Source: an uncultured Candidatus Sumerlaeota bacterium | GTDB lineage: Bacteria; Sumerlaeota; Sumerlaeia; UBA8349 | DNA: 64,000 nt | Assembly (NCBI GenBank): GCA_942493245.1 | Contig: OW818685.1 | Location: 4,770,973 to 4,834,972 of the forward strand | Direction: 5' to 3' | Part shown: positions 2,326 through 47,003 of the stretch, one piece after another | Layout of the letters: the number at the start of each line of letters is the position of its first letter | Position numbering within the stretch: position 1 is the first letter of the stretch | Notes under the pieces: model-generated | Databases searched by the model: none | The model's input: the letters and a program-made list of their open reading frames with translations, nothing else | Told to the model about the DNA's origin: nothing | Position numbers and translations under genes: made by a program

Positions 2326-2577
2326 GGAACTCCTCATTGTCTAGTTTGCCTTTTCTGTTCGGGGAAAACAGAAACCATTTCTCCGTCATCCCCGCGAACG
2401 CGGGGACCCAGAGAAGCGCGAACCCGAGACAAGGAAGTCGTTCACGGCTCGGAAAAATCCAAACAGGGGGTTCCGGATCTGGGTTCCCGCTTCCGCGGGA
2501 ATGACGAATGAGGGAAAACCCCGAATAACCCATATAACCGGTAACATCATCGCTCGCCTATACAACGAGGAGTTCCT
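2326..2577. mobile_element. MITE-like non-autonomous element A, about 250 bp, with 15-bp terminal inverted repeats GGAACTCCTCATTGTC / ACAACGAGGAGTTCC
   Basis: Left TIR at 2326-2341 and right TIR at 2563-2577 are reverse complements with one mismatch. The same TIR bounds element B at 54647-54924. A TAAAAGAT motif is present in both flanks. The internal cargo is the 121-bp double-hairpin repeat at 2385-2505. Confidence 0.5.
2385..2505. repeat. Family-1 121-bp double-hairpin repeat, copy 1
   Basis: GTCATCCCCGCGAACGCGGGGACCCAGAG ... CTGGGTTCCCGCTTCCGCGGGAATGAC. The two ends are imperfect inverted repeats and each end is itself a GC hairpin. A second copy lies at 36273-36392. It generates the spurious ORF peptides VIPANAGTQ and WVPAFAGMT on both strands. 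Confidence 0.75.
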
Positions 2578-2643: not shown

Positions 2644-4110
2644 TCAAACCAGAAGATGTTCCAGACTGCGCAGGACGATTTCCGCGCCCGCCTTCGGGGT
2701 CAGACGGTCCATGTTCAGGATCAGGTCGTAGTTTTCGGCGGTATTGATATCGGCCTTGAAGAACTGACGGATGAATTCGGCGCGTTCGGCGTCGCCCTTG
2801 GCCAGGCGGGTTTCCGCCTCCTTGCCAGACAGGCCGTAGAATTCTTCCAGATTTCTCAGCCGCTTCTCTTTCGACGCAACCAAACGCACTCGCACCCCCT
2901 CGTGTTCCTCGAGGAGGAAGGGCGCCCCGCGACCCAGCAACGTCACCCCGCCCTGAACGATGAACGCACGGGTCACCCGCACCAGCGAACGGAAATAGTC
3001 ATCGCGGCTGATGTGCTGACCCTCGGTCAACACGTCGAGGAGGGCTTGAATGGCCCCCTGGGCGCGCTGGTCCAACCGGTCAATGATCCGCGGGCTGAGT
3101 TGCATGTCTTCGGCCACATGGTCTATCAGCTTGTAGCCGATGGTTTCGTACCCCAGCCGCTCGTGCAGAACCTCGCTGACCAGCCGCGATCCCGAACAGA
3201 ACTCGGGCATGAAGGCAATGCTGGGCAAGCGGTGGTGACCGCCTCCTTCCCCTTCCCCCATTTCGTCTTCATGCCAGAATTCCTTGAGCGACTCCTGCTG
3301 GCGGTACTCCCACTTGTCAATCTGGCGGCTGATGATGTCATGCGCGGATTCCTGGCGGCCCGTGCGCCAGATCGTGTCGCTGACACACTTCTGGTGCATG
3401 ACATCGAGAGCGCGCAGGATGATGTGCGCCGTCGTTTCCGGATTCAGACGGTCCAGGTTGATGACCAGATCGTAGTTGCACGGATCGTCAATGTCGAGTT
3501 TGTAATACTTCAGACTGGCGGCGGCGCGCTCCTCGTCGCTCTGGCGCATGCGCTCTTCCGCTTCCCGCGCCCCGATGTTGTAGAACTGCATCAGGTTGGC
3601 CACCCGTTTGTCTTCCGAAGCCGTCAAGCGGACCCGGATGCCCGCGCCCGGCCCCACCAGGAAGGGCGCGCCCCGCCCCACCAGAATGCAGCCCCCCTCG
3701 TGGATGAACACGTTGAGAACATGCACCAGATGGCGGAAATAGTCCTCCTGCTCGACATAACGTCCCTGCAGCAGTCCATCCACCATCGTCCGCACATAGG
3801 ACCGCAGCCGCTGGTCCATCCGGTCTATCATCTGGCGGCGCACGTTCATGTCCTCGGCCACTTTGTCAATGAGCGAGAACCCGAAAAGCCCATACCCGGT
3901 CCGCCGGCTCAAGACCCGGCTGACAATTCGCGAGGCGCACCCAAACTTGGGCGCCAGGGTGATGGCCGGCTTGAACGGACCCTTTCGGCCCGAGGTTTCC
4001 ACCCACGGCTGCGGACGCCACCCGACCGCCTCCTCGCGCCGTTCCTCCTGATCGCGTTCCAGTTCCCACTTCTCGATTTGATGATTAATGAAATGATCCA
4101 CACTGCGCAT
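2644..4110 (-). CDS. Tandem-duplicated cytidylate kinase-like family protein (two Cytidylate_kin2-like modules, P-loops degenerate)
   Basis: 488 aa with two homologous halves. Each has ...GRGAPFL..., VRVRL(V/T)AS(K/E)(E/D)KR..., and a (R/K)QFFKADI..ENYDLILNMDRL-type C-terminus, which matches the PF13189 family pattern. The P-loop GSGG is replaced by GCAS / CSGS. ATG at 4110 is preceded by AGGGGGT. Confidence 0.8.
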   Translation of the reverse strand: MRSVDHFINHQIEKWELERDQEERREEAVGWRPQPWVETSGRKGPFKPAITLAPKFGCASRIVSRVLSRRTGYGLFGFSLIDKVAEDMNVRRQMIDRMDQRLRSYVRTMVDGLLQGRYVEQEDYFRHLVHVLNVFIHEGGCILVGRGAPFLVGPGAGIRVRLTASEDKRVANLMQFYNIGAREAEERMRQSDEERAAASLKYYKLDIDDPCNYDLVINLDRLNPETTAHIILRALDVMHQKCVSDTIWRTGRQESAHDIISRQIDKWEYRQQESLKEFWHEDEMGEGEGGGHHRLPSIAFMPEFCSGSRLVSEVLHERLGYETIGYKLIDHVAEDMQLSPRIIDRLDQRAQGAIQALLDVLTEGQHISRDDYFRSLVRVTRAFIVQGGVTLLGRGAPFLLEEHEGVRVRLVASKEKRLRNLEEFYGLSGKEAETRLAKGDAERAEFIRQFFKADINTAENYDLILNMDRLTPKAGAEIVLRSLEHLLV

Positions 4111-4611: not shown

Positions 4612-4817
4612 GGAAGACGGGTGTTCCGGAACCCAGCGCTGAAGCGCTCGGCTATTGTCAAAAGTCCCTGACGGGACTTGGGTCAGGAACACCTGACTCC
4701 GTGTCATAATGAAGATTCTTTTTGGCAAAGGCTATATCTCCAGAAAGTGGCTCTTCGATGGACGCCAGACAGACGCCTGGCGGTCCCGGGGAGTGGTATA
4801 TCCCCCTCAGGAAAAAA

Positions 4818-4862
4818 CCGGTTTCTGGGCAGGCGAGTGTCCCGCTTACCTGAGAGAAAACC
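4818..4862 (-). repeat. Family-3 short repeat (GGTTTTCTYTCAGG - GC hairpin - CCCAGAAA), diverged copy in reverse orientation
   Basis: The reverse complement reads GGTTTTCTCTCAGGTAAGCGGGACACTCGCCTGCCCAGAAACCGG. This aligns with the copies at 46731-46772 and 59203-59242. Confidence 0.55.
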
Positions 4863-5002
4863 TTGCGAAAAGGGGGCAACAACGGTTTCCATGTTCATAA
4901 AAAGAAAAGGAGGGAGAAGGCCTCCGATCCGGATTCCTCTCCCTCCTGAACCTCTTGCTTCAACTCGTCAGACCCGTCCGCTCAGAAACCGGCCTCACGG
5001 GT

Positions 5003-8000
5003 TCATTCCACGATACCTGCCGCGCTCGTGTGGATGATAAACTGCGTGACAGGCGGTTGAGCCGGTTTGAACTTCGGCCTGGCTTTCGGATCGGTCGAAA
5101 TGAAAGCCTCACCCTCGATCCGGCCCGTTTTCGACGTGGTGATGCTCTTGATCCCGCCGGTGTAGACGGCCGTGCCGTCCTCCTGGAAGCCCGCGTAGAA
5201 CTGGCCCGACACCCCGTTCAGACCCGACAGAGTCGTGATACAGGAAATCGTTCCGGTCTTCGGCTGCGCCAGCACTCGCATGCGGCTCGGTTCCCACGGG
5301 AAGCCCAGGTAGCCGCCCAGATAGACGGTCCCCACCTTGACGGTCTTCGCCGACAGAAGCGCGATCGGTCCCGCGCTCTTCAACTCCGACGTCCTCAGGT
5401 TGCCCTGCAGGATCCGGGTGCCCACCGTTGTGGTGGCATAGGCGCCCCCGCTCACCATCACCTTTGCGACCGGCCCCTGCGTACCCTGCAGTAAGCCGAG
5501 CGCCACCGGTCCACCGGTGGATTGCACCAGCGCGAAACTCGGCGCGGAGAGCCAGGTGTCCTGAACCGACAGGAGCGTTCCGCCCTTGACATCCTTATCC
5601 ACGTCGCCCAGGGCGCCGATACCCGCCTGGCTGAAGCGCTTTTCCTTCGTGGCCGAGTCTTTGAACTTGCGCGTGGCCACCTTGACGTACTTCACCGGCT
5701 GCGAGGTCAAAAGGCCCTCGAGCACTGCGCCGTTGATCGCCACCGACAGGGGAATACTTCCCACCGTCTGAATGGAGGTGACGCCAAACTCGGTAAAGTT
5801 CGTCCGCGACGAATTGTATGACGCCGTGATCTTCAACGTCCCGACGTCCCCGCCCTTGTAATCTTCCAAGCCGTTGGCCGCTGTCACCGACTTGACCGAA
5901 GAGGCCTGCATCCGGTAGATCGGCGCATCCGAGGCGAACGTGCCAAAGAGGCCCGGAATCACAACCGACGGAATCTCGCGCGTTTCGAGGTATGCGGTCC
6001 CCGGTTTCGCCACCGTGCCACTCGCCGTTCCGGCAGGCAGTCCCTTGGGCAGCCACTTGATCTTGATCGCGCTCTTGTCCGTGGTGCCGTTCAGGGTCAG
6101 GCCACCCGTGGTCGGAGTATCGAATGCCAGCGTGATGTCCTTGCTGTACGTGATCTTATACGCGCGCAGTGGCAATGTCGGGAGGAAGAGCCACCCCTGA
6201 GCCGGACCGCCCAGAGCGCCGGCGTTTTCACCCGCCGCGCCGTTGGCCGCCTGCACCCAGTAGTAGTACGTCTGACGCCGCTTCGCGGTCACATCCTCGA
6301 AACTTGCGGAGGACTGCCACAAACTGATCGCCTGCGGCGTGTCGGTCGGCGATTCGGCGCGATAGACCCGGTAGTAATACCCGTAACCCGCCAGGGGTTG
6401 CCACGAAACGTTGACCCTGCTGCCCCATTCGCCCTGACTGGCCGCCAGACCGCCCGGCGTCGGGATCGGCGCCACATAGAGCGTCGTGAACGTCCAGACC
6501 GGTCCACTGGTACTGCCAATGGCGTTCTTCGCCACCACCTTCCAGTTGTAAACCGTGTTCGATTCCAGTGAACCCGACGGCGTGAACTGCGTTCCACCCA
6601 GATCGCTCGCCATCGGCGTGGACGGCGTCGGATCGGCCGGTTTCCACAGATAGAAGTCGTGGCTCAGAGCGTTCGAGCCGCCACTCCAGTAGAACGTGGG
6701 AGTCAGCGACACATCCACCGCCCCATTCGACGGGTTGGGCCAGCTGGGCGCGCCCGGCGCCCCGACAACCCGCGTGACAAACGTGAAAATGTCACTCGAC
6801 GTCTGTCCCGCCCAGTTCACCGCCGTGACCTGCCAGGTGTACGTGGTCCCTCCCTGGAAAGTCGGACTGTTCCACCAGTAATAACTCCAGGTCGCCGATA
6901 CCGTCGTGGGGGTGGCGTCGCCCTGTTTCCAGACCGACAGAATGTAACTGTCGGCGTTGGCCGCGTCGTTCCAGTCGAAGGTGGGATCTTCCAGCACGCC
7001 TTCGGCGTTGTTCTCCGGCGAAATCAACTGCGGTTTCTCCGGGGTCACAATCGCCCGCGTCGTGAAACTCCACTCCGGACCCGGCGTTTGCCCCACCATG
7101 TTGCGAGCCACCACCTGCCACTTGTACGTTGTGGCGCCCTCGAGCATCGCGGACGGCGTGTAGTGACTCGCGGTCAGATCGGTCACGGTCGGTTGCGCCG
7201 GTTTGGCGTCCGTGGACTTCCAGAGGTACAGATCGTACTTCGAAGCCGCCGACGAGTCGGCCCAGTCCAGCGCGGTCGTCGGGAGAACCGCCGTGGCCCC
7301 ATCCGACGGAGTCGGTCCGCCCGGCTCACCGGGCAGCGCCGGCGTCTCGGTCGTGAACGACCACAACGCCCCGAGCGTTTCACCCTTGGCGTTCCCGGCA
7401 GTCACGAACCAGTAGTACTTCGTATTGCCCTCGAGCGCTCCCGCCGGTTTGAACGAACTGGCGGTCAGCCCCGACGTGGTCGGAACCGTCGGACGAGGTT
7501 GCGCGGACGGCCACAGGTACACGTTGTACCAGAGCGCATCGGTCGCATCGGACCAGTCGAGCGTCTTATCCACCGACACGTTCGTTTCACCCACATAGGG
7601 GGATGGACTGTCGGGAATCACCGGCTCGGGCGAACCCACACGCTGGGTACGGAACGTCCAGACCGGCCCGACCGTATCGCCCGTCGCGTTGCGCGCCACC
7701 ACCTGCCACTTGTACACCGTGTTGTACGCCAGATCGCCCGGATCGTACTCGGTCGAGTAGGCATAGTTGGGCCAGCCGGGTTTTCCATCCACCTCGCGCC
7801 AGACATAAATCAGGTAGTAACTGCCGGCCCGCGCGGACGCTTCCCAGGCCAGATTGATCGCCACCGAAACGCCGGTGGAATTATCGGGTGGGTTGAGCAG
7901 CTTCGGTACGCTCGGCGCGCCCTCGATATGGGTCCGGAAACTCCACTCCGGTCCGGCCTTCTGGTTGGTCTTGCCATTGACCACCACCTGCCACTGGTAC

Positions 8001-11000
8001 TCGGTGTCGAAGTCGAGATCCGCCGTCGGCTTCCACGCCGGGTCAGTCAAACCTGTTATTGTCGGCGCGACCGGCTTCGCCTGAGTCTTCTTCCACAGGT
8101 AGAGATCCCAGGAAAGCGCTCCGGCCGAACGGCCCCACGTCATCGTCGCATCCACCGGAATGGAAAGCGAAGCGTCTTCCGGGTAGGGCGAGAAGGGCGC
8201 CTGAATGTCCGTGCGGAACGTCCAGACCGGTCCTTCCGTCGAATCCACCCGGTTTTTCGCCACCACCTGCCACGAATACGTCGTCAGGTAGTCGAGGGCG
8301 GCGGGCAGCGGATACTGACTGACCGACAGCGCCTCGGCGGTGAACGTGGTGGGCACAGGTTTGTCGGCCCGCCAGAACTTCAGGTCGTAAGATGTCGCCA
8401 TCGGCGTGTCGGCCCAGTCCAGTTGCAACGCGACCGATGCGGTCGTTGCGCCGTCCGCCGGAGCGGGTTGCGCCGGGGTCTCGGGTTTCAGCAGGATCGT
8501 CGTGAAGGTCCAGGTCGGCCCCTCGGTCCCCCCCGCCGTGTTGCGCGCCACGACTTTCCACTTGTAACTGGCGTCGTAGGGCAACGTCTGCGGCGGCGAG
8601 TACTGACTCACCGTCAAACCCGACGTGGTGGGCGACCAGGGTTGCCCTTCCGTCGCTTTCCAGAGATAGACGTCGTAGGTCGCCACGCGCTTCGAGTCCG
8701 CCCAGTCCAGCGTCAAGGTGACGGGCGCAGTGGTTGAATTGTCCTCGGGGTTGGGCGTCGTGGGCGCTTCCGGCGCAGTCAGATAGATCGTCCGGAACGC
8801 GGATTCCGTACTCGCCACCGTTCCCTGTGCGTTGCGCGCCACCACCTGCCAGCGGTAATCCGTCCAGTAGGCCAGACCGCCCGGTACCTGGAAGGTCTTG
8901 CCCATCAGCCCCGCCTGAGTCGGAACAACCGGTTTGGCCTCATTCGACTTCCACAGATAGAAGTCATACGAATCGGTCAAGCCGCCGCCGCTCCAGTTGA
9001 AGGTCACATCCGACTCGACGTTGGTGGCGTTGTTGGCCGGGGTCAGCAGAATCGGGCGTTCGGGCCAGATGGACGGCGCAAACGTCACCTGATCGACCCA
9101 CCCGGCGTTACTGCCCGCCGTCCACCACCCACGCGTATAGACCCACTTGAGCGAGTGCGATCCGGCGGGCACCTCGACGGTCTGTGAGGTCCAGCCCACT
9201 TCGCCGTTGATCGAGACCTGTTGCGCATCGTCAATGTAGAACCGCAGCGTGGTGTCGGTGTGCGCCGAGAGTTTCCACCAGAACGTCAACGTGCGATGCT
9301 CGGTCGTCGAGATGTCGGCGCGCAACGTGCTCGGCACGTTATAGCCCGTGTTGCCGCTCTGCGCCGCATCAACGCCGTCGTGCGTCACCTCGGTCTGATA
9401 GAACCACGTTGCGTCCCCTTCGGTGGACCATGTCATGGGCAGCAGGTTCGCATCCACCGAGTTAGCCAGATTCTTCGGATAGACGCTCAACAGCCACGAT
9501 TCTTCGTCCGAACCCAGTTCGTTCGTGGCGCGAATGGTCACCGTGGTGACCCCCTCGGTCGCCGAAGCCCACGAGACCACGCCGGTGCCGGCGTCAATCG
9601 TCATGCCCTGCGGACCGGCCACCAGCGACCAGGCGATCGGCTGCGCGCCCTGAACCATCTCCGGTGTCGGACCGGTATAAGATTCACCGACCGAGACCGA
9701 AGCGTCGGGAATTTCAACAATGACCGGCGCCTGCGGATCAATGATATTCAGAGTCACCTGCGTCTGCATCGCGGTGCCAAGCTCCACATACCGCGCGGTC
9801 AATGTGACCTGGGATGGGGTCGGAGCATCCGGATCAATCGTGATCTCGACTCCGTTAATCTCAACATAATCCGCCGGAGCCGCCTCGAACTCGATCGTCG
9901 AGGTCACGTTCAGACGCGTACCGTTCACATAGTTGACAAACGCGCGTCCGTTGATCACATTGCCCGGACTGACGTTGATCTCAGTCCCTTCGGCCATCGC
10001 CTTCGACACCACCCGACCCACTCCGTCTTCCACCTGCGCGGAAAGCGCCTTGAGGGTCGAGGACGTCTCGGGGAAGTCCAGATAGACTTCGAGGTTGCCC
10101 GCCAGGACGCGGTGATAGAGCGACACGTAGCCCTCGCGCCAGCCGATCATCAGCGTCTGGTCGTTGTTGCTGAATCCCACCGACGCTGCGCCGATGTTCT
10201 CCTCACCCATACCCGAAGCCGGCAGGAACTCGCGGATCGTCGAGCCGTCGTTCATGTTGATGAGCCGCACCGGGCGCGCCGATTGCCCCGGCTTGCTGCC
10301 GCCCGAAACACCCACCAGCGCCAGCGTCCCATCCTCGGAAATGGCCACGGTGAAGGACGCGTCCACCGACTCGCCCATCAGCGCATCCACCGTCACACTC
10401 ATGATGAAAATATCATTGACCAGAGAGGGACCGGCGACCAGGTCCGAAATGTCGTAGGTCTCCAGATAGTACATGTGGGTCTGTTCAATATCGTCTCCCG
10501 AGACCTCCTCGGTCACGGCCACACACCGTGTGCCCAGTTCGTTCACAAACAACTGCAAGGGCGAGTGGCGCGTCTTCATGCCGTTGAACAACAGACCCGC
10601 GCTGTTCCAGATCCCGATAAACCGTTCATTGTACATGCCGCCCAGGAAGTGGTTCTCGAGGCGGAAGTCAAGAGCGCCCGCCACACGGGATTCCTCGCGA
10701 ATCTGGCTCAGGTTCGCCAGATCCCACAGCCGCACCTTCGAGTCCGCCGTCACCATCCGCGTTCCCTGCGGCGAGATGGCAAACGCAGACGCCGGGGTAT
10801 GCAGCGTTTTCCAGAGCAGATCGTTGGCCGTATCGTACATGAAGATCGAAACGCCCACGCGCGTGGCCAGTTTCGAACTGTCGTTGGTAAAGTCCATGCC
10901 CTCGAACTTCGGGTCAATGAAGTACCCGGTTTCCATCAGGCGCGTCGCGGTCATATCCACCCGGTTTGTCCCCGGTGTCCACTTCATGGTCCGCTTCGGA

Positions 11001-14000
11001 TCCTGCGTGAAGACCGTCTTGCCGTCTCCGGAGATATGCGCGCCGCTCATCGGGAAACTGTGCGCCAGCGACCCTCGGAAGATCCCGCGTCCGACTTCCC
11101 AGAACTGGAACGACGAAAATTCGCTGATCTTTTCTTCCTCGCCGATGTCCATCCCCATGAACGACACACCCACCGTCTTGCGGCCCGTCGTGCGGCCCGT
11201 CACCACATACTGACCCGACGGATCCACCAGGTAGTGGACAATCTTGCCTTCTGCCGGCGGGTGGTCCAGCCACCGCAACAACAGCCCGTCCTTGTTATAG
11301 ATCCAGGTCGAAACCGGGTCGTTCGTGGCCACATACAACTGTTCGCCGATCACCTTGGCCGCCGTCACAGCCGCCGGGTACTCGTAACGGTCTATCACCT
11401 CGAGGTCCGACTTGCGCCAGCGCGTCAGGGTCTGGTCTTCACCCGTCGAATAAAACCCGTCCGTCCCGAGGTAACCCACCGCCGTGACCGGCTTGGTGTG
11501 AACCAGCAGACCGCTCGGGCGCACCCGGGAACCATCCGTCCGGTTGAACACCATGACGACGTTATCCGCGCCACCGCTCAGCACCTGCGTGCTGTCGAGC
11601 GCCACACTCTGCGTCTTGCCCGTGTGGGCCGGCTTGAGCCATGTGAAGACATTCGTCGAGAGGTCGAACAAACCCACGCGTCCGATCTCATCGCCCACCG
11701 CCAGCATCGCCGTAGCGCCCGAACCCGAGAGCGCCGCACAAACAATTCCCGCATCGTGCGTGAACACGGTCAACGGTGTCGAGGTCGGCACATCCACAGC
11801 CCAGGTCTTGATCGTACCTTCGCCGCCCACCGTCACAATACGCGCCGCGTCCAGATACGCCACGAAGGATATCTGTCCTTCGTGCGCCATGATCACCTGT
11901 TTGATCTGGTACTGCGACGGCGTCACCCCCACCTCGTAGAGGTTGATCGCGCCCGAGCTGCTTCCCAGGGCCAGATTTTTCCCATCCGCGCTGTAGGCGC
12001 CGGACAGACCGTACCCGCCACCCGTCACCTGATAGCGTTCCCACTCGGTCTTCGGGCCGTACAGCGTCACCACCGTGTCGGTCGTGATCGTCTCGCCCGA
12101 CAGCGCCGTGTAGGAACCCGTCACGAGGTAATTGCCCGGACGGGCCGTGTAGTTCACCTTGACGTTCTGCCCCAGAATCTCCATATCCTCGGGCTTGTCC
12201 GCCGTGAGCGTCACATCGGCCGAGACGTCGGCGCTGTAGCCGTCGTCCCACCACGCCGTGTACCGGATGTTACGGAACACGCCGGGGTTCAGGGACAGGT
12301 GATTCGGATCGGCCACCAGCGACACGACCCGGGCGCCGTCCTCATTCACCAGCACCCGCGCTTCGCCGGTCAGGTTCCGGCCACTCTCGCGGTACTGGGC
12401 GCGCAGGACAAACTCACCTTCGGCGCCCGGAGCCACTGTTACGACATTCCCCTCGAGGGTGGCCATCGAGGCCGGTTCGACCTCGATCGTCACCGACGTG
12501 GCTTCCACGCCGCTGCGCGGCGTGATATCGCGCCGGGTGCTGTCGTCATAGACCAGTTCGACCGTGTAGTCCTGGCTCTCGCCCGGTTTCAACACACGCA
12601 GGCTCGGGGTGATTTCGATGCGATCGGCCTGCGAGCGCTCGTACGTTTCCACGTAGTTGTAACTCCAGGCGATCATGATCAACGAGTCGTTGCGCGCGAA
12701 TTGGACCGACCGCACCCGCACGTCCATCAGGCTCGAGTGCATCGGGTAGAAGTAGCGCAGAATGCGGCCCGTCTTGACGTCGTAGAGCCGCACGGTGTTG
12801 TCGCCGCCGATCAACAACAGCGACCCATCCTGCGAAAGCGCCGCATCGTAGTTTGTCCCCTCGAACCGGTACAACCCCACCGGCAGCTGTTTCGGCATGT
12901 CGTACATCTGGACGCCGGTGTGCGCATCCACCATCCCCACTCGTTTGCCGTCGGGGTGGTAAAGCATCTTGTAGGGCGTGTAGGGATTCGTGTTGGTCAT
13001 GTTGTACAGCACGGCGTTCGGGTCATTGGTGCGCAGGGTGATGAGCGACTTGTTGTTGGCGATCGCAAAACCCCACTTCGATCCGTCGCCGCTGAACGCG
13101 CTCTGGTAGTTGCCGTCCGGGCTGGCGTAGTTCGCGAACAGGTCACCCGTCTTGGCCGAATAGAGACGGTCGCCCAGCGCCGCCAGATTGCCATCGGGCG
13201 ACAGGCTGATGTTCGTGTAGTAATAGGTTCCCAGCGTGCGGTCGAGCACCTTCGAGAAGCCTTCGTCACTGACCGCTTCGATCTGGAAACGCCCACTCCA
13301 TTCGTTCGTGATCCACGCCACTTTCGAGCCGTCGTTCGATACATCGAAACCGTAAATTCCATTCAACCCGTCCGAGCGCCGGATCGTCTTGCCCGATTCG
13401 CGCTGCAACAGGTTCATGCCCCAGTTGGTCTCATAGAACAGCCGCGCGCCGTCCTGCGAAAGTCGCGGACGAGCGCTGTTCCAATCCGAAAAGTATCCCT
13501 GCGGACCATACTGCCCGACAAAGGAACCGTCGGAAACCAGGAACACCGCCGACGGCGCCCAGCCGTTCCCGTTCGAATTCACCATCACCCGCTGACCCGC
13601 GTCGTCGAACGTCACGTTGTCGAGGCTGCCGCCCCAGTTCCCACCCGACACGGTATTCAGGTTGATCTGATAAAGTTCCAGTCCCAATTCGTCGTACATC
13701 CGCAACATGGCCTGGTTACCCGTTCCGGTAATCATGCAAATGCGCTTGCCGTCGAACGAAACCGCGGCGCCCTGCGCATTCTGGCCCGTCAGAGAGATCG
13801 TACGCACCGGCATGTGGGTGGAGATTCTCCAAAGTTGGACCGTGGCGTCAGTCGAAGCCGTCATGAGGTGGCTGCCGTCACCCGTGAAACCCACCGCCGT
13901 CACCGCCTGGCTGTGGCCCAGGAACGCCTGCCCCACCTGTACGCCCGTTTCCGAGTTCACCAGGTACGCAAAATTGTCGCTCGTTCCCACCGCAATGGTC

Positions 14001-17000
14001 TGCCCATCCGGCGAGTACGCAATCGCGTTGACGGTCGCATTGCCCGGCACAAACTCCCAGAGTCGCCGCTGCGTGTCAATGTCAAGCAGCATTCCCTTGC
14101 CCTCGGTGATGACCATCAACTTGCTGAAGTCGGGGGACGGCACCGCATAGGTCACCAGCAGGTCGGCGAACATCGCCGAACGCAGCGAACCGGACGTGTT
14201 CAAGTCCCAGATATAGACCGCGCCATCGCGGCTCACCGTCACCGCCGCCGAGTCGTCGCTCGAGAAACCCGCGTACCGCACCTTGTCGTAGTGGTCCTTG
14301 AGCATGATCAACGGCGTATTCGACTCGGAATCGAACACCCAGGCCGAGCCCGTGTCGTAGCCCAGAATCACCCGGTTGCCCGCGTGGTTGAAGCGCCCGC
14401 TCACCCGTGTGCCACCCGGGCTGCGGTAGGTCAGCGTCCACTTCATGTTCTGGTTGGGGTTGTCGCCCAGCCCGCTGCCGACCACAAGCCGCGCCTCGGG
14501 CGCCGTGCCCGAAACCATCTGACCCGCGCCCACCCCGATTCCCTCCGACCGGATCGAGAACGTGATCTCGTCGCCGTTCTTCAGGTTCGCGAAGTTAGCC
14601 ACGGCGATCATGTCGCCGCGCGAGACAAAGGACGCGTCGAACAGGAGCGTTCCCGCGCCCGTCTCCGTGATCTGCAACTGGCCGTCACCCACCACCAGTT
14701 CGTCGCCTGCATCCACAACTCCGTCGCTGTTCTTATCCCAGTACACCCGCGCACCGCTGATGTCCGCGATCTCGATCCCCGTCATGTTGGACATATCGAG
14801 TTGGAGCGACTGCGCCTCGATGCCGGCGGGAGCCAGTTGGAACCCGAGAATCGGCACGTCGTCCTGAGACGCGCTCGCGCCGAAATTCGTCGGCGCCTGC
14901 CAGGCCGCGCTCTTCGAGAGCTGTAATGGATACTTCACAATATGCGTCACCGCGTCCGCGGCGCCGCTCACCGTAGCGGTCCCCACCAGTTTGATATCCG
15001 CGGTCGAGAGTCCGATCTTGAAACGGTTGCCACCCGACAGGTACGCAAAATCCGCCACCACCAGGTAAGCGCTTTCGGTCGCGAACGTCTGGCGGCTGAA
15101 CTCGATCGTACCGCTGCCACCCGAAACACTCACCTCCGGCGCACCGCCCACAGTCCCCTCGCCCGCATCCACCACGCCATTGCCATTGGCGTCAGCGATC
15201 AGGCTCACGCTGCGAATCTTCTGCGCGGTCAGGCCCTCAACGTTCGACAGACGCACGGTCAGGCGCTCGACCTGTTTCGTCGCATCGCCCTTCAACTGGA
15301 AGCCCAGCAACCGCACATCCTGCTGCGCGGCATAGGCGTTCAACTGGTCGGACAACTGTCCGTCCACCGGATTCGACAGAATCACCGCCGGACCCGCCAC
15401 GTGCCGCGCCGAATCCGCTTCCGTCTCGATACCCGTCCCCGCCGGAACCCGGCAGAACCGGTCGTTCAGTGACACTGTAAATCCCTGCCCCGCAACCACA
15501 TCGCGCGCGTCGGCCAGCAGAATGTACGCGCCCGACGGAGAATTCTCCGACACGAACGGGTCGGAGAAAACCACCGACTGGTTCGAGCCTTCCGTCAACA
15601 ACAACCCCGCTCCGCCCACAGTCGTCTGTTCCGAACCGCTGATGCGCCCGTCGCCATTGGTGTCCACCGCCAGGCGGAAGTTCGCCATCTGGCTCCACTG
15701 GAAGTTCCCGGCAGCCTCGCTCAAACGGAACCCGACCTCACGCACCTGCGACGCCTGGGGCGTCACCCGGAACGCCAGCAGTTCCACCGCCGAGAGCGCC
15801 GAACCCACTTCCAGATTGGTGCGTTCCTGACCCGTCACCGGGTTCACGAACCGCACCATCGGGAAAGACGGCTCCAGACTCAAGCCCGTGTAATTCACAT
15901 AATCGGTCACCGGATCACCCAGACCCGCCGCGTTGCCCACATGCCGCGGTCCGGTCGCAGAACCCCACCAGTTGTCCGGCGCGTCGAAGGCCGTCTGCGT
16001 GTTGTTGTACACCGCATAGTTCGAACTGTTCTCGAAGAAGTTCCCCGTCAGGGTCGGCGCAGTCGCCATCGCACCGGTGACCCCGTACGTGTTCCCCGTC
16101 CAGATCGTGTAGGCGTTGCCCACGAACCCACTGCGGGTCACTTCCCAGTTTCGATCCGTCTGGAACAGCAACGCCATCGGCGTTATCGTGCTCTCACAAT
16201 TCACCGACGTGAAGAAACAGCCGTCCGCGTACAACTGACCGCCCACGAGACTGTTCGCCGTATCCGGCGGCGCGACCCACACATGCGCCGCCCACCAGTT
16301 TATGTCGGTTGTTACATTGGCTTCATGCACGTAGAAGCTGCATGTTTTCAGGTTCGCCGTCCCACCGGCGTACACTTCCAGCGGACTCACTCGCGAGGAG
16401 GCGTAATACAATCGGGCCGCGCGCCCCAGGAACGCCGTCCCGGTGGCCTGCATCGTCCCATAGACCCGGATCGACGCCACCGAATCCACTTCGACGTCCG
16501 TCAGGTTCAGCGTACCGCCCGCCTCCACCACCAGCAACCGGTTCGGATGGTCCGTGACCAACGTACTGCTTGTTTCGAACGTCAGCGTCCCACCGGCCTT
16601 GACCACCACCGTTCCATTGCTGGAATACTGATCCGCATTGGTGTTGTCGAACAGGATCTGTGTGCCTTTGTTGCGTACCACCGCCGTGCCTGTCACATCC
16701 CCCCAGATCCGCACGTTCGACTGGCAGTCCTGGAACTGGCACACTCCCACGTTCTGAACACCCGTGCCGAACTTCCACCCGATGCCGTAGCTGAACCCTC
16801 TGAAGGAACAGGGAATGGGCGTCGCCTGCGTGGTGTCGTCCCCGATGCTCGCATTCGGCAGCAACCGCATCTGGACGCCAAACGATGTCCGGTTGCCGCT
16901 GAGCGTGTTGAGCGACTCGAACGAGCATCCCTTCACCTGAATCGAACTCGTGTCCGACGACGTCACAATCGCCGACCATCGCCAGTTATCCGTATAATTG

Positions 17001-20000
17001 CGCTCGATGGATCGCAGTGAACAGCGGTTCAACTCCACATTGCCGCCGTTCAGAACTTCGACCCCGTTGAACCGCCAGCTGTCGTAATACTCCGCGCGTG
17101 TGTAGAACTGGAAGTCCGCGTCAGACGCCACCAGCGTCCCACTCACCTTGATGGCCGTGAAATCCAAAGACCCGCCGTGTCGCACACGGACTCCCGGCCC
17201 GATCGTCAAAGTGACTCCAGCCGGAACCACCAGCTGCGACGTGATCAGATAATCCTTGGTCGTATCATTCCAATTCGTATTCGCCGCCAGAGTCCCTCCG
17301 ACGACGTTCTGGGCATCGTCGTCCATCTCGACCACCTGGACCTGTTTCGACACGACCCCAACCGTTGAACCGGACTCCGCGATCTGGAACTGGGTGGTTC
17401 CATTCGCCGAGTCTCCATCCGCCGCTGCCGCCAGCGTTACGGCCACCGGTGTGTTCCACGCAGACGGTTGAATCTGGAACGTCGCGCCACTCGAAACCGT
17501 CAGATCGGCGTCGCCCCCGGCCACCGCCGTCACCGCCAGCGACACCGGCGCCGAAGGCATCGCGCTGAGCCACACGTGGAAAACCGTCGTGCCCGCTTCA
17601 GCCACCGGCATCTCATCCAAATCGGTCATGACCTCAACCACAGCCGCCACGGCGGGCGAGGCATCCGCCACCCCCATCACTTCGGCGGTCAACAGGTCGT
17701 TGTCGCGGTTCACATCCTCAACCACGCTCGCATCATCGCTCCGCACGTCAAACTTCGCCGGCGTTTCCGGCGACACACTGCCCGCAGGCAGATCCACCGG
17801 CACCTCGGCGCTCGTACCCGCCGCCAGCGCCGGGATCGAGGCCGTTGCCAAAGCCGCGCCACTCGCGCCTGCCGGGCGCACGCCCAGCGTCGCCACCGGC
17901 GACTCCGGTCCACCCGCGTTGCGCACCCGCACCACCAGCCGCGCCGAACCATCCGCCTGCGCCACAGACGAAACCACTTCCATCGGACTGAGGTCCGTGC
18001 CACCCAGCGTCACCCACTGCTGGTTGTTGTATTCGTTGAATTCCGTCACGGTCGAATCCGCGTCCACCACGGCGTACAGCGTGTGCGCGCCCACCGGTTC
18101 GGGGATCGTCCAACTCAACGCGACCGTCACCGACGTGCCGCCCTCGAACCAATCGCCCAGTACCCGCCGCGCCACTTCCACGCCGCCCGCCGCCGGGTTG
18201 CCGTCGTACACCACCACCGAGGCGCCCTGCACGGGCAGGTCGCCCGTGTTGCGCACCAGAATCTCGAAATCCACCACTTCGCCCGAGAGCAACGGGCCGG
18301 CGGAATAGGTCAGGTCGCCCGGCAGAATCGCCAGATCCTTCACCAGCGCCCGCTTCACCACCGCCAGATCCGCCTGGCCGCGCGTCGGCACGCCACCGAT
18401 GGTCACCGACCCGCCGCCATCCAGCGCGATCGTTTCGGTTGTCAACGAAACCGCCTGGCGGTTGTACGCCACGGTCAGGTTCCCCAGATCGTCCCACGCC
18501 GGGGCGTACGCATACTCGATCGCCGCGTCCTGGAACAGCCGCCGATCCTGGCTCCAGACACCGGAGGCCGGATCATAGACCGTGTACATCGCGTTCGTCC
18601 CCTCGGCCGTCTGCGCCTGCCAGATCAACCCAAGGTTCCCGTCGGGATTCGGAGCCAATGCAAAGTCCATGAAGCCCATCGAGTTCGAGTTCGCCCGCAC
18701 GAGCGAGGTCGTCGTCTCGAAATTCTGGTTCATCACCAGGTCGCTGCCCATCTGCCACACCAGATACGTCTGGCCCGTAGCCGTCACGGCGGCCCGGATC
18801 GAATCGTCCAGAACCGCGTTGTTCGTCAACCGAGCCGGCGCGCTCCACGATGAGCCGTTGTATTTCGTGTAATACACTTCCGTGTCTTGCGTCGAGCTGG
18901 TCGCCAGATCGAGTTCGCGCGTATAGGCGTACACGGCCAGATTCCCCGCGCCCGCCAGCGTCTCCGCGCGCTCGCCGGTCAGGTTCGCCACGAGCGCAGC
19001 CGGGGCCGACCAGGTATTCGCATTCGCGTCGAACCGCGCCCAATGCGCCGTCGTCGGAGCCGCGTCGCTCCCGACGAAATAATTTTGCGCGTTCGACTTC
19101 CACGTCAGCAACACGCTGCCGTCCGCCATCGGCCCGCACAACTGCGGACACTGGTCCAGGTACGCGTTGTCCGTCAACGCCACCGGTGTTGACCACGTGT
19201 GGGCCGAGTGGTCCCACCGCGCCCAGACGATCTCATACAGCGGCATGATGACGTCCAGGTTCGCGGTCGTCAGGTTCGGATCCTTCACCCGTTCCCACAC
19301 GGCCACCGCGTCGCCATCGCCGTCGAACGCCACCTGGGGCGCGAACTCACCCTGAGTGTTCGTCTGGATCGGCGCCGGGGCCGACCAGGTTGTCCCGTTG
19401 TAATACGTCCAGTGAATATCCGCGAACTGCAAGTCCGCCCCACCATTGTCCGCCGAATAAAGCAACATCAACGTCGAGCCGTGCGAGGCCAGCGCCGGAG
19501 AGGAATCCGGGTACACATTCGTCACCAGCGTCAGGTCCGCCTGCTCCAGACCCGACGTCACACTCTCTCCGTCCGCCTTGACCAATCCCTCCGCCGCAGC
19601 CCGCACCGGCTGCGCACCCGACGTTCCCAGCATCCGGAAACGATCCAGCGGCGTCTCGCCCGATTCGGCAGACTGAATACCGACCGATGCGCCCGAGGCC
19701 ACAAACTGGCTCGGACCGTTGGCCAGGTAGGCCCGCGACACGGGCCGCTGCCCCGTTACAGAAACGCCATCGGCCAGGAGCGAATTGGGACTGAAGAGCG
19801 CGACGATCCCTTCGCCTCCCTCTGACGGGTAGGTCAGGAACGGATACTCGCCCTTGACCACTTCCATGTCTTTCCACTTGAAGATCGCCCGGACCAGCGC
19901 CTTGAACTCGATCCCCTTGAATTCCGGAATCTGCAAGATGCGCGTTTTCAGCGCCCCCTCGCCACCCACCGACAGCTCCGCCGTCAGCGCCTTATAGAGG

Positions 20001-23000
20001 CGTGGGTTGTAAACCGCGCTGAGCGACGCGCCGAGCTCCGTATCCAGGTTCTCGATCCGCACCGGGGACACGCACAACTGCGCCTCGCCCTTGCCACTCA
20101 AGCCCCCCACAATGTCGAGCCGCTGGATCGAATTGATGTCGAATTTCCACTTCTTCAGATAATCCAGGAACCGGGCAATCTGACCACCCGGGAAGAGGTC
20201 CGTCAGGAGAAACGAAATGATCGTGTCCTTGAACGCGACCTCCAACCCCACCACCGCCTTCTCGAACGACACCCCGGCCAGCGGTGTCGCCTTGCCGCTC
20301 ATCGTGAACGACGGCTTGATCTCCACCTCTTTTTCTCCGTAACGGAACAGCACCTTGCGGTGGTTGTTCCGGTCGCGCTCATTGCCCCGGTAATACTTCT
20401 TCCCTTCGGACAACTTCTTCGCATCGTCGTCCATCGAGCCATTGATCCCCACCGACCACTCGCCGTTGGTCAGTTTATAGATCAAGCCCAGGACCACTTC
20501 GACTTCCGGCCCGAGATAGCCGAGGAAGGGCAGGTTCTTTGTGTTTTTCAGTTTGACCAGCGTCACCTCGCCGCTCAGGAACAGATCCAGGTCCGTCGGC
20601 GTCGTAGGAATCATAGACAGAATCAGACGGAACAGTTCGGGCAACGCCACCACGTTGATTGGCTCGACCCGCTCGGCCTTGCGGCCTTCCTGGTCCTCGG
20701 CCACCACCGTGATCGCGTAACGCCCCAGATTCGTCACGCCCGAGAACCACTGGCTCACGTCGAACTCGAGTTCGAAGAAGTCCGGCGCAGGAGTCCCCAC
20801 TTCAATTTCTTTTGTCTCTTTCGTATCGTTCGACGAGAACGTGACCTTCTTCGGGGTGCCCCCGTTCCAGTTCACGTTCACCACATACTTGTCCCTGAAA
20901 TTGCTCAACCCGGCCAGCAACACGCTCTCGCCGCTGCCGTAGCTCAGTTTGCCCGCCGCGATGGACGGTCCCACCGTCTGCTCCGGCAATGTCAGGTCTA
21001 TCACCACCTGTGCCCCGTTCGACGGAGGCTCGATCGGAAGGGCGTTCTCCCCGTAGCCGTTCTTCGACACCGTCACCACCCGGGCGTCGCTCTCGACCAG
21101 GTCTGCCAACTGGTACTTGCCGTCTGCGCCGCTCAACACCTCGCGCGACGGCGGCTGATTCTTGCGAATCCGCGCCGCCACCGTAGCACCCGCCACCGGC
21201 TTGCCGTCTTTGTCGGTAATCGTTCCCACCACGGTGAACGGTTTGGCCACGGTCAGGACCGACAGGCTCTCGCCCGTCAGTTTCTGTCCCCCGCGCGTGT
21301 TGGCCGAAATGCTGTACCGGATCGGGTACGACCCCGGCTCGAGCGTCTTCCCCTCGGGCAGGGTATAGGTTGCCACCCACTCACCCGCGCCGTCGGACCA
21401 TTGCAGTTTCCCTTCGCCCCGCGCCGTGCCCGAGTTGTCCGTCAGTTTCCACGTAAATTCGTCCGCGTTCTGGTTCGTGATCGGCTGCTGGATCAGATCC
21501 GTCGCTCGTGCCCGGACGTCTAGCGTCCGCGTCAGACGGTTGTAGTTCTCCGACGATTCGATCGTTACACCCGACGAAAGGGAACGGTAATAGACCCCCG
21601 CTCCTTCCTTCCAGACGTAATCCGCGGCGCTCGCGCTGCGCGCCGCCATGCGCTCGAACGCCGGCGACCCTTCACTGTCCGAAACACTCTTGGCCGCCTT
21701 CAGGTCGCTCGCGTTGCACGAATAGATCTGAGCCGGTTCGCCCGCCACACCTTCGTACATCCAGGCAAAGAATTCCTTGCCAAAGCCCCCCGCCACCTCG
21801 GGATACCGCGCCGCATACGAAAGCAGCGTCGGCTCCCTGACCCCGGTTCCCCCCAGGTTCACCGGGTCGCCATTCGACTCGATCCGCTGCCAGTACATCG
21901 CGTTTGAGGTCGAACACCACACAATATCCATCTGACGCGCGCCGCTCGAAGCGATCTGCGGACCGCCGTAGGTCACCAACACATTCCGATCGGGAGAAAT
22001 CTCATGGTAGAGTTTCCCCTTCCACTTCAACCCCTTGCGCGCATGGACCACCGACCAGGTTGTCCACGCCGGGTCAGGAGCCGCCCCCTTGGCGTCTTCC
22101 TTGTGCCGCCATACCACGTGCAGGTTGCCCGTCGAGTCGTATGCCAGGTCCGGACGCCCGTAGCCATCGAACGAATAACTCCCGAACGCCACACCAAACT
22201 TGCGCGAGAACGGCGCCCACCGCGTTTCGGTAATCGGATTCCCATCGGTCCCCAGTTCGACCGTCGCGATGAAATTGATGCCGTTGGGCGCCGGGGTCGC
22301 GTCATCGTACACCCGCCCCTCGCACACCACGATCGGCTGTCCCGCCGGGGTCAAGGCAATCGCCGGCCAATTGTATTCCTGGTTTTTGTATGTCGAGGAC
22401 GGATAGATCTGGAACGCGCGCGACATCTTGTACACGCCGTCTTCGATCCGGATGTAGTTCAAAATGCTGCGGCTCGTCGTCGCGTGGACCACATGCACGA
22501 CGCCCGCCTTGTCCACCGCAATGCGCGGCACCAGCACCGCCGAACTCGACGAGCGGTAGATTTCCTTGGCCGGCACCACCACCTGGTAATCCTTGTCTAT
22601 CTTCGTGTACCACAGGTTGTTGTTGGCCTTCCAGATGATGTGCGCATTCCCCGCGCCGTCAATCGCCATATCCGGCACCGACGCGTTCTGTCCCTCGGGG
22701 CTGACCAGTTTCGCCGGATACTGGTCGTTATCCAGGATCGTCAGCGTGTGGACGTTGTTCACCCCGATGTCCACATTGCCCGGCGAACCGGTCACCGTTG
22801 CCACAATTGTCTCTTTCTTTTCCTTCTCCTGATCGTCCACAATCGCGAAGTTCAGGAAACTCGAACTGGTCCCCTTATAAATCGTCACCGTCATCTGAGA
22901 CGGGGGGTAGTAATCCTTGTCCGCCTGCGCCGTACCACTCAGCGCGTACTGAATCGCGATGTCTTCCGGAGCGACCTCCGACAACGTCACCGTCGCCGTA

Positions 23001-24241: not shown

Positions 24242-24680
24242 GGTGGACCACCTTTCCTGACCCGGCGACCGTCTTGAACGGCCCTCCCGGGTTCTTTGAA
24301 AAAAATACCCTCTGCGCCTCGATAGATCTTCCGTTCGGAAACGCAAAGACGATGAGTCGGGCAGGCGCACTTCGCCCGCCGGTTGAAAAAGCGCCCGGTC
24401 ATTCCACAACCAGACGCCAAAACCCGTCTGCAAAAGACGGGGGAAAACCAGACACACAGGGTGTTGACGCAACTGCGGGGAACCGGCCCGGGGAACACCC
24501 TCATCCGAGACTCGTTCGCGGGGGACAAAAGCATTCCCCCATCTCGCCCCGGAAAACCATTCCGACTTTTGATGACTGTGTACAGACCTCTAACGGTTCT
24601 TCTGTCACAAAAAAACCGCCCCATCCCCACGCACAAGAAATTTGGAAAACCCGCGCAAAACCACACTCTTCCACATATAT

Positions 24681-35286: not shown

Positions 35287-36084
35287 ATGGTGTTTCATCG
35301 GATTTTGGGCGGCCTGATCCTGGCCGGGTTATTGAGTGTTGTCTGCGGTTGCCGTCACTCCTCCCCCTATCGCTACGCCGATGGGGTCTTCCAGTACTCG
35401 ACCCTGCAGGCCCTGCTCGAGGGAGTGTACGACGGGGAGTTGGAGTGCGGCGAACTGCTCTCTCACGGCGACCTGGGAATTGGAACCTTCAACGCGCTCG
35501 ATGGGGAAATGATCGTTCTGGACGGGCAATGCTATCAGGCGAAAGCGAATGGCTCGATCCAGCGCGTCCCGGGAAACTGGAGCACCCCCTTCGCCACCGT
35601 CACCCCGTTCGACGAAGACGAAATTCTGCACCTGGGACAGGTCTCCTCTCTGGATGTCTTCACCGCCACGATGGATAAGGCCGCAACCAACCGCAATCTG
35701 CCCCTGGCGTTTCGCGTGGACGGAACCTTCACCTATATCAAGACGCGCAGTGTGCCTGCCCAGAAAAAACCCTACCCGCGTCTGGCCGACGCGGCCAAAC
35801 GGCAAAAAGTCACGGAAATCAAGAATGTGACCGGAACCATTGTCGGATTCCGCCTGCCACAGTATCTCAACGGCGTCAACGTGGCGGGGTACCACATGCA
35901 CTTCATTGACTCGAAACACCGCTGGGGCGGGCACGTACTGGATTTCTGGGCGCCTGCGCTGCGCGTGGCGCTCGACCCCTCGACCGATCTGCGCATCGTC
36001 CTGCCCCAGACCGACGAGTTCGCCCGGGCGAAACTGACTGAAAGCAAGGAAGCCGAAGTCCAGGCCGTGGAACGCGGAAAATAA
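35287..36084 (+). CDS. alsD: Alpha-acetolactate decarboxylase with N-terminal signal/lipoprotein-like peptide
   Basis: GVFQYSTLQALLEGVYDGE...GDLGIGTFNALDGEMIVLDGQCYQ is the ALDC signature. ATG 35287 has AAGGAG 11 nt upstream. The N-terminus is MVFHRILGGLILAGLLSVVCGC. Confidence 0.85.
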   Translation: MVFHRILGGLILAGLLSVVCGCRHSSPYRYADGVFQYSTLQALLEGVYDGELECGELLSHGDLGIGTFNALDGEMIVLDGQCYQAKANGSIQRVPGNWSTPFATVTPFDEDEILHLGQVSSLDVFTATMDKAATNRNLPLAFRVDGTFTYIKTRSVPAQKKPYPRLADAAKRQKVTEIKNVTGTIVGFRLPQYLNGVNVAGYHMHFIDSKHRWGGHVLDFWAPALRVALDPSTDLRIVLPQTDEFARAKLTESKEAEVQAVERGK

Positions 36085-36085
36085 G

Positions 36086-36157
36086 AGGGGACACGGGCGT
36101 TCCGCCCGTGAAGCGGTTTGGATCATGGGTGGGACGCCCATGCCCCCTTTTTTTATT
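36086..36157 (+). repeat. Family-2 REP-like palindromic element (a), doubling as an intrinsic terminator after alsD
   Basis: GGACACGGGCGTTCCGCCCGTGAA ... GGTGGGACGCCCATGCCCCC is followed by TTTTTTT. It shares the CAYGGGCG-N3-CGCCCRTG core with the elements at 42976, 54724 and 56578. Confidence 0.6.
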
Positions 36158-36272
36158 GTGTCAATCGATCCTTTTGCAAAAGTCGTTGAATGACTCGATT
36201 TTCAGGTGAGCATTGAGGGTTTATCCTTCTCCGATCTTGCGACTTAAACCTCCCGGCACTCGTCTCCCTTTT

Positions 36273-36392
36273 GTCATCCCCGCGAACGCGGGGACCCAGA
36301 GGAGCGCGAACGGGAAAACAGGGGGGGAACTCAGGGGAAACGCAATCAACCAGAACGTCCCGGATCTGGGTTCCCGCTTTCGCGGGAATGAC
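36273..36392. repeat. Family-1 double-hairpin repeat, copy 2
   Basis: Near-identical ends to copy 1 (GTCATCCCCGCGAACGCGGGGACCCAGAG ... CTGGGTTCCCGCTTTCGCGGGAATGAC). It is flanked at about 100 bp on each side by the perfect 12-bp palindrome CTTTTGCAAAAG (36171-36182 and 36473-36484). Confidence 0.75.
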
Positions 36393-36515
36393 GAAAAGTG
36401 GAATGGCGTTTAGACCCGAATGTAAAAAACATTCAAAACGATCAACCCAACTTTGTCGCCGTTTACTCCATACTTTTGCAAAAGGCTCAATCACCTCGAA
36501 AAGGAGACCGGAAAG

Positions 36516-42953: not shown

Positions 42954-42975
42954 CGCATCGAGAGTGTTTCAAGAA

Positions 42976-43137
42976 GAGGCACGGTTGTCTTGCCCGTGAA
43001 GCAAGAGGAGGCACGGGCGTTCCGCCCGTGAGTCGGTTTGTCCCGCCGGCGCGGTTCCGATGGAAACTCGGGGGAAGGTTCCAGATTTCGGAGGCCCTTA
43101 TAATATGGACAACATGGTCGGGACGCCCATGCCACCT
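42976..43137. repeat. Family-2 REP-like element (b)
   Basis: The left end has a tandem of GAGGCACGG...GCCCGTGAAG and GAGGAGGCACGGGCGTTCCGCCCGTGA. The right inverted partner is GGTCGGGACGCCCATGCCACCTC at 43118-43137. Confidence 0.6.
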
Positions 43138-43300
43138 CATACGTGCCCCCGTCTTTTCAAGACCCGGAGTCTCTTGACAGAACCATTTCAAAGAAAAACA
43201 CCCACTGATACAAATATCAAAATCCCCCGATGCGAAAGATAACGAGACCCACCCCATCATGACTTTTTTCCCCCACGCCTGCCCGACCGAATCCATCGCG

Positions 43301-46527: not shown

Positions 46528-46730
46528 AAGACCAAACCGAAAAGACTTTAGTGAAGCGATGGGGATATTGTCAAGCGAGAACCGTATGCCGCAAGTTTAC
46601 CGGATGGGTGGCTCGGTTGACGTTAGCGGGTGTGGCGGTGGAAAAGAGGGCCGCTGAGCAACAGGACAATTTGGGGGTTCAGGAGGATCGGGAACCGGAT
46701 CGTTTAAAAAAACCGCAGGAAACGCCTATA

Positions 46731-46772
46731 GTCCGGTTTTCTTTCAGGCGGGCGTGACGGCCGCCCTCCCAG
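46731..46772 (+). repeat. Family-3 short repeat copy
   Basis: GTCCGGTTTTCTTTCAGGCGGGCGTGACGGCCGCCCTCCCAG. Compare 59203-59242. Confidence 0.6.
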
Positions 46773-47003
46773 GAACTGCGCGCCGCTGTTTGAGGGATGT
46801 TCCAGGGGCGCGCTTTTTATGCGCGAGTGCTCACTATTGAGCATGTTGCTCAGAAACGGCTACCGGCGTGCCTGATTGTGATTAATAACAACCGCTCAAA
46901 TTGGGGGGAGATAAAGTAGTCTGATCTTCACCTGTTCCGGAAATAATTATTCAGAGATCTCATAATAAAGCGATTATGTCACGGATCAGGGTCTTTGTTT
47001 TTC

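Follow-up and report, generated by a model that had tools for sequence, protein, structure and literature searches.

Two intergenic elements of a Sumerlaeota genome very probably belong to a dispersed family of small nonautonomous transposons

The 64-kb stretch of DNA analyzed here (the window) contains housekeeping genes, and the named homologues of the product of one of its genes, hemW (53336 to 54586), are from Sumerlaeota (BRC1). Two short elements that share terminal inverted repeats (TIRs) are located between genes of the window, and we annotate both as complete MITEs. Element A (2324 to 2578; 255 bp with the terminal CAG/CTG counted) is flanked by the stop of a cytidylate-kinase-like gene (2644 to 4110, minus strand) and a response-regulator gene. 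The arms of element A (2324 to 2344 and 2558 to 2578) are complementary at 19 of 21 nucleotides (90%), and the element is bordered by the decamers TAAAAGATAC (2314 to 2323) and TAAAAGATCC (2579 to 2588), which are assigned as the left and right copies of its target-site duplication in a register fixed from 13 elements and agree at 9 of 10 positions. Element B (54644 to 54927; 284 bp) is found between hemW and a DUF3109 gene (55022 to 55786). It has a perfect 15-bp core TIR with the terminal triplets GCG and GTG, and the two copies of its duplication, TCCCGGGTCT at 54634 to 54643 and again at 54928 to 54937, are identical at all 10 positions. Elsewhere in the window, a giant ORF on the minus strand (5003 to 24472; 6,489 amino acids) contains internal repeats of ~285 to 290 bp and probably encodes a surface protein of repeated domains.

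The core 15-mer, GAACTCCTCATTGTC, occurs in the window at four sites when up to two mismatches are allowed: perfectly at 2327 to 2341 (+), 54647 to 54661 (+), and 54910 to 54924 (-) and with two mismatches at 2561 to 2575 (-). The expectation is 0.10 sites, and none of 100 dinucleotide-preserving shuffles of the window had four. A and B have in common only 17 bp at the left terminus and 15 bp at the right terminus. The interiors differ, as the preliminary description of this DNA had stated, A carrying a double-hairpin repeat and B a REP pair of the CACGGGCG type. In RNA folding, A and B each form a nested long hairpin (z = -7.4). The longest stop-free stretches are 78 amino acids in A and 94 amino acids in B; the ORF across A had no Pfam match, and no Rfam family scored above the threshold in the window.

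Copies of the repeat were also found outside the window. A scan of a genome collection with the bare 15-mer gave at least 119 loci; the matches listed are almost all isolated chance matches, as expected from the size of the collection. GAACTCCTCATTGTC is also the in-frame ELLIV of the prepilin motif FTLIELLIV, so that pseudopilin genes are included when the 15-mer is counted; such in-frame prepilin 15-mers are seen at L008, L032, L041, L074, and L104, and pseudopilin genes are numerous in these genomes. Among the matches listed, only two Sumerlaeota loci, L009 (a 230-bp element) and L014 (a 290-bp element), combine an inverted partner at MITE distance with an extended CAG...TCT end, and it was these two that revealed the extension of the repeat by CAG outward and TAG inward. 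A metagenome scan with the 19-mer CAGGAACTCCTCATTGTCT gave 32 loci. Family-type ends are present at 22 of them, which include further independent complete elements, and the other 10, representing six distinct places, are apparent chance matches in unrelated, often low-G+C, coding DNA. Scanning a viral collection gave no family match. With repeated samplings of one locus collapsed, the window, two labelled Sumerlaeota MAGs, and the metagenome contigs together hold 13 independent complete copies of 137 to 403 bp, in addition to at least seven unpaired family ends. Proteins encoded at L123, L134, and L148 are identical to, or cluster at ≥90% with, NCBI proteins of "Candidatus Sumerlaeota bacterium," and the isomerase of L134 shares a 90% cluster with a protein of the source contig of the window. 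Several of the metagenome contigs terminate inside family copies.

The TIR consensus, CAGGAACTCCTCATTGTCTAG, is 21 bp long including the terminal CAG/CTG; over 33 ends, positions 1 to 21 are kept, and position 22 is the first that is not conserved. Within the elements, CAG stands before the 15-mer and the stop codon TAG after it. Outside CAG...CTG, the adjoining 10 bp on the two sides agree at 110 of the 130 positions that the 13 independent elements provide, compared with 26 to 52 of 130 in unrelated registers, and the match signal decays symmetrically, from 110 to 62 to 65, when both flanks are slid together. The decamers themselves differ from site to site (e.g., ATCTCTCCCC, GGTTACACGG, CCGCTAGTCC, and GTAGAAGCGC). 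The element at L127 has no recognizable duplication when read in the 10-bp register (1 of 10 positions). The preliminary description, which was made from A and B, had proposed a MITE-like family with shared 15-bp TIRs that is moved by a transposase in trans. The family is borne out by at least 13 independent elements from several genomes of Sumerlaeota, and the TIRs recur beyond the two places in the window, at elements with their own 10-bp duplications; however, their length is 21 bp and not 15 bp. Likewise, the flanking repeats pointed out earlier, 14 bp at B (GTCCCGGGTCTGCG) and TAAAAGAT on both sides of A, are present, but they do not give the length of the duplication, which in the register of the 13 elements is 10 bp (and not 8 bp in the case of A).

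One detail at B departs from this pattern. Its left terminal triplet (54644 to 54646) is GCG, the family triplet being CAG, and GCG is also found directly after the right-hand decamer (54938 to 54940), which is why the direct repeat at B looks 13 to 14 bp long. This may be a coincidence, a 13-bp stagger in that single event, or a later change, and the simple 10-bp model leaves the effectively 13- to 14-bp flanking repeat of B unexplained.

No empty site was seen among the loci first fetched, as expected, because all of them had been fetched via their TIRs. Empty-site polymorphism, which the preliminary description had named as a point to check, was found for B and for another copy. The latter is a 197-bp type-B derivative that is present upstream of a fucose-isomerase-like gene at L134, L150, and L162. 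At L163, where the flanks are 93% identical, the gap in the alignment is exactly 207 columns long, the sum of the 197-bp element and a decamer, and GGGTTTGAAA is left as one copy. The same two flanking genes, again without the 197-bp copy, are found at L165 (86% to 89% identical). For B, the corresponding site was available from four assemblies (L166 to L169) of the closest available relative, in which DUF3109 is 87% identical to that of the window. In these, the hemW 3' end is followed by a 125-nucleotide spacer and the DUF3109 gene, with no element. When 54644 to 54937 are removed, the window is collinear with L168, and the distance from the stop codon to a conserved TTTTCCCTTGCAATTGCC box, counted by hand, is 70 nucleotides in both the window and the relative. 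Since the TIRs and the duplication of B are perfect and the 87%-identical relative is without it, B is suggested to have moved after the split from that relative.

The same region of a 77%-identical relative (L152, 3025 to 3190; L153, 2140 to 2305) has a degenerate, internally deleted type-B copy directly after hemW, which has lost its left TIR and its second REP and has GACAATGAGGCGTTTctg as its right end. The gene downstream of this copy differs from that in the window, so that the copy may or may not be orthologous to B. The 87%-identical relative has no copy there, and the arrangement reflects either independent insertions close to the 3' end of hemW or a loss. For A, the two loci with kinase genes 90% (L158) and 85% (L159) identical to that of the window have no TIR downstream. 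Both synteny and alignability with the window are lost exactly at the kinase stop codon, and because the similarity ends there, these loci do not represent a clean empty site for A.

The interiors of the elements fall into subfamilies and contain hairpin modules, some of which also occur alone. The double-hairpin module of A (GTCATCCCCGCG...CGCGGGAATGAC; 2385 to 2508; 124 bp) has a solo counterpart in the window at 36273 to 36395, in an unrelated context and without the GAACTCC TIRs, and both arms of the two copies are 88% identical. Related double hairpins without TIRs are present downstream of the orthologous cytidylate-kinase-like gene at L158 (11590 to 11700) and L159 (1239 to 1334). A double hairpin thus lies 3' of the same kinase-like gene in the window and at both of these loci; the TIR shell is found only in the window, and the orientation of the window hairpin relative to the gene is opposite to that at L158 and L159. 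The subterminal sequence of A has a short, weak resemblance to that of the type-C subfamily (L127, L149, and L151), in which hairpin-containing indels vary, and on this likeness A may be related to type C.

The type-B subfamily includes B of the window and the elements at L014, L120, L122, and L148, together with the shortened L134, L126, and L131. Homology between the full-length copies extends over the whole element (67% to 82% identity), the REP pair and its spacer included, and B itself is 75% to 82% identical over its whole length to the elements of L014, L120, L122, and L148. In B, the pair (GAGGTGGCATGGGCGTCTCGCCCATGA ... TCACGGGCGGGACGCCCGTGCCACCTC, with the conserved spacer) occupies 54724 to 54840, and similar pairs occur in the window at 36083 to 36149, 42971 to 43138, and 56577 to 56669. 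The pair is kept in the full-length copies examined (B, L014, L120, L122, and L148), and the L134 variant lacks part of one arm. Because the full-length homology takes in both the pair and the spacer, we consider the REP pair ancestral to the type-B subfamily.

In the type-4 subfamily, forms of 403 bp (L146) and 187 bp (L123) differ by a module that is bounded by CCCCGAAGGGG hairpins. The same module is found alone in the window at 51501 to 51692, where it has 46-nucleotide inverted arms and is 82% identical to interior positions 126 to 285 of L133/L146; its boundaries, at CCCGAAGGG hairpins, are those of the segment present in L146 and absent from L123. Subfamily divergence combined with the gain or loss of small hairpin modules is the simplest account of the interiors, the direction (insertion or deletion) being unproven. 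Nested insertion, which had been proposed for the interiors in general, is supported for the double hairpin of A and for the center of the type-4 subfamily because both also occur alone, but not for the REP pair of B, which was inherited by the whole subfamily.

Some other arrangements of repeats were observed in the same data. (i) L133 (reverse strand, 2855 to 3105) and L148 (1948 to 2251) are 99.8% identical upstream and then diverge: L148 continues with a full type-B copy and pgk and L133 with a left-truncated type-B copy, 11 bp, a type-4 copy, and a different gene, an arrangement that suggests rearrangement at clustered MITEs. (ii) The REP pair at 56577 to 56669 is situated within a continuous 672-amino-acid ORF (55790 to 57808, plus strand), just downstream of the end of a PMT_2 glycosyltransferase domain; the hairpins are either a translated insertion or part of two genes read as one. 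(iii) The solo double-hairpin module is flanked by inverted 20-mers with the palindrome CTTTTGCAAAAG (36164 to 36183 and 36472 to 36491). The sequence by these 20-mers (AAGTCGTTGAATG.CTCGATTTT.A.GTGAGCATTG...) is found again in another Sumerlaeota MAG (L160, ~4780 to 4870), where an isomerase gene lies downstream of it, and they may represent a second repeat or MITE family or an operator pair. (iv) A 55-nucleotide intergenic repeat with a GGCGGGACGCCCGCC hairpin is present at 46721 to 46775 and 59192 to 59246 (91% identical) and also at L159 (3108 to 3154).

TIRs, duplications of fixed length, dispersal in multiple copies, empty sites, and modules occurring alone were all observed directly for this family, and we regard it as very probable that A and B are copies of a small nonautonomous transposon (MITE) family dispersed through Sumerlaeota (BRC1) genomes. 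As to how such elements would move, a DDE-type transposase encoded elsewhere would bind both TIRs and cut at the CAG/CTG termini, and the element ends would be joined to target DNA whose strands are cut 10 bp apart; repair of this stagger would produce the 10-bp duplication. The subfamilies (type B with its REP pair, type C, and type 4) would have diverged while hairpin modules were inserted into, or lost from, their interiors. Which transposase is responsible and how it cuts and joins the DNA are our inference.

Transposition by IS200/IS605 elements is not known to leave a duplication, and IS630 elements duplicate TA. The two enzymes considered in the preliminary description, IS200/IS605 TnpA and IS630, are therefore at odds with a 10-bp duplication. 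Members of the ISAs1 family have terminal inverted repeats of 14 to 22 bp that start with CAGGG and 10-bp direct repeats (PMC11946415). Because the TIR of the Sumerlaeota elements is 21 bp long and starts with CAGG and the duplication is 10 bp, we propose an ISAs1-type DDE enzyme acting in trans as what would be the best fit. The TIR starts with CAGGA, positions 4 and 5 being the same in 33 of 33 ends, and thus matches four of the five hallmark bases. We found no transposase gene in the 64-kb window and, in 345 kb of Sumerlaeota-like DNA, no two TIRs spaced as in an IS, and a tblastn search of this ~345 kb with Escherichia coli YhhI, a distant query, gave no match to an ISAs1-like gene.

Three candidates for a parent element or a related signal were rejected. 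A TIR pair 2.9 kb apart in L124 is not an IS, as its right "TIR" is formed by the ELLIV codons of a pseudopilin gene. In L121/L133, family sequence runs into a promoter, a ribosome-binding site (RBS), and an ATG that could be taken for the start of a transposase, but this is more likely a truncated type-4 copy beside a host gene; the contigs stop seven codons into the putative gene, and L148 has the neighboring type-B site otherwise arranged. Finally, the outward-facing end GAGGAGTTCCTG stands directly before an ATG in L125/L145, as an RBS would, but that locus is an apparent chance match to the 19-mer, and in A and B this end is not placed directly before an ATG.

Other readings of the elements were weighed against the MITE interpretation. 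That the 15-mer is a chance or coding sequence, with A and B representing fragments of pilin genes, is next to impossible in our estimation. GAACTCCTCATTGTC does read E-L-L-I-V, the core of the prepilin motif FTLIELLIV; a pseudopilin ORF of L124 (2594 to 3244, minus strand) contains the exact 15-mer in frame, and 5 of 120 genome-collection matches listed consist of FTLIELLIV or similar prepilin N-terminal codons. However, the CAG before and the TAG stop after the 15-mer in the elements are not pilin codons, and the sites are paired in inverted orientation and flanked by duplications. It is also extremely unlikely that A and B are invertons, i.e., segments with their own promoter or regulatory cargo that are flipped by a site-specific recombinase. 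Families of invertible promoters under the control of one invertase do have shared inverted repeats and differing interiors, and here, too, one inverted repeat bounds intergenic segments of 130 to 400 bp with differing interiors, both window copies being upstream of genes. Inversion, however, yields no direct duplication, whereas the copies have their own 10-bp duplications, and relatives differ by the presence or absence of entire elements. Moreover, resampled loci (L120/L130/L140, L134/L150/L162, L014/L144, and L122/L124) each show one orientation relative to the flanks, and no recombinase gene was found nearby.

The alternatives that concern the interiors and the enzyme carry more weight. 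The interiors could be independent internal-deletion derivatives of different larger parents, with the solo modules as leftovers of decayed MITEs, an origin that we hold to be possible but doubtful. It agrees with the retention of the REP pair and spacer in the full-length type-B copies examined, which points to inheritance and not to a recent insert, and the short type-4 form of L123 could have arisen by deletion between two CCCCGAAGGGG hairpins. On the other hand, the solo modules at 36273 to 36395 and 51501 to 51692 and the solo REP pairs at 36083 to 36149, 42971 to 43138, and 56577 to 56669 are sharply bounded and have unrelated flanks with no degenerate TIR near, and the double hairpin occurs in relatives without any TIR. 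A further reading holds that the hairpin modules (the 124-bp double hairpin, the CACGGGCG REP pairs, and the 190-bp module with 46-nucleotide arms) can move by themselves and insert by preference into the MITEs, or travel inside them, so that TIR shells are the vehicles that disperse REP-type hairpins in Sumerlaeota genomes and two mobilization systems are coupled. We consider this unlikely; its driver might be an unusual or host-domesticated transposase, with no parent IS visible. As for the enzyme, the MITEs could have been moved by an IS4-family or other DDE transposase rather than one of the ISAs1 family, from a parent IS that is perhaps extinct, and we retain this as a tentative, less favored option. 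Some IS4 subgroups (IS231, ISH8, and IS4Sa) start with CA and have 8- to 12-bp duplications, features that are also compatible with the Sumerlaeota elements. A non-ISAs1 enzyme would agree with the start CAGGA instead of CAGGG and with the lack of an ISAs1-like gene in the Sumerlaeota-like DNA searched, and copies only 67% to 82% identical imply that many insertions are old, as they would be with an extinct parent. Against this, the combination of a 21-bp TIR, a CAGG start, and an exact 10-bp duplication is that of the published ISAs1 description (PMC11946415), and B, which is perfect in its TIRs and duplication, is missing from the 87%-identical relative.

The MITE family described here is apparently undescribed and comes from a poorly studied phylum, and it falls into the known category of type II MITEs. 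Its structure is well defined, and there is direct support for its mobility. A full-text literature search gave no relevant MITE or IS paper on Sumerlaeota. Within the literature searched, this is the first defined mobile element for Sumerlaeota/BRC1, a phylum known almost only from MAGs, for which the consensus of the TIR, the length of the duplication, the subfamilies, and empty sites are now available. The 21-mer can be used to flag contig breaks and misassemblies in MAGs of Sumerlaeota and the insertions as strain-level markers, and annotation is now possible for the intergenic hairpins, which gene callers read through. The general understanding of MITEs is unchanged by these elements, which are an ordinary kind of mobile DNA.

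Prokaryotic MITEs have been defined in the literature, type II MITEs share only the TIRs with the parent IS, and stable stem-loop transcripts are typical of MITEs (PMC10969869). The Sumerlaeota elements resemble MITEs in being shorter than 500 bp, noncoding, and intergenic, in having TIRs within the range of 4 to 30 bp, and in being flanked by direct repeats. Presence or absence with a single target copy at the empty site, another mark of MITEs, was observed at L163. As in type II MITEs, the likeness between the Sumerlaeota subfamilies is confined to the TIRs, and stem-loop folding is predicted. Unlike AT-rich MITEs, they are G+C-rich (54% to 59%). With ISs of the ISAs1 family (ISAs1, H-repeat/IS1358, and Frankia Francci3_2330), they have the TIR length and the 10-bp direct repeat in common, but there is no transposase gene between their ends, and the fifth base is A and not G.

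The inner modules share with REP/BIME sequences, which are mobilized by RAYT (TnpA-REP) transposases, the form of G+C-rich imperfect palindromes in inverted pairs with variable spacers; they are intergenic and multicopy and may belong to the REP/BIME or IS200/IS605-type class; no RAYT gene was found in the window. The outer elements differ from both REP/BIME and IS200/IS605-type elements in having TIRs and a 10-bp duplication. The Correia elements (CREE) of Neisseria, a bacterial MITE family that has been well studied, are abundant intergenic elements of ~100 to 160 bp with long TIRs, internal-deletion variants, and hairpin-forming transcripts, and their insertion duplicates TA. The Sumerlaeota elements are likewise intergenic, with long TIRs, internal size variants, and hairpins, but they differ from the Correia elements in their 10-bp duplication and in the unrelated sequence of their TIRs. 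The inner hairpins of A (GTCATCCCCGCG...CGCGGGAATGAC) are presumably closer to the neisserial dRS3-type ATTCCC...GGGAAT than to the Correia ends.
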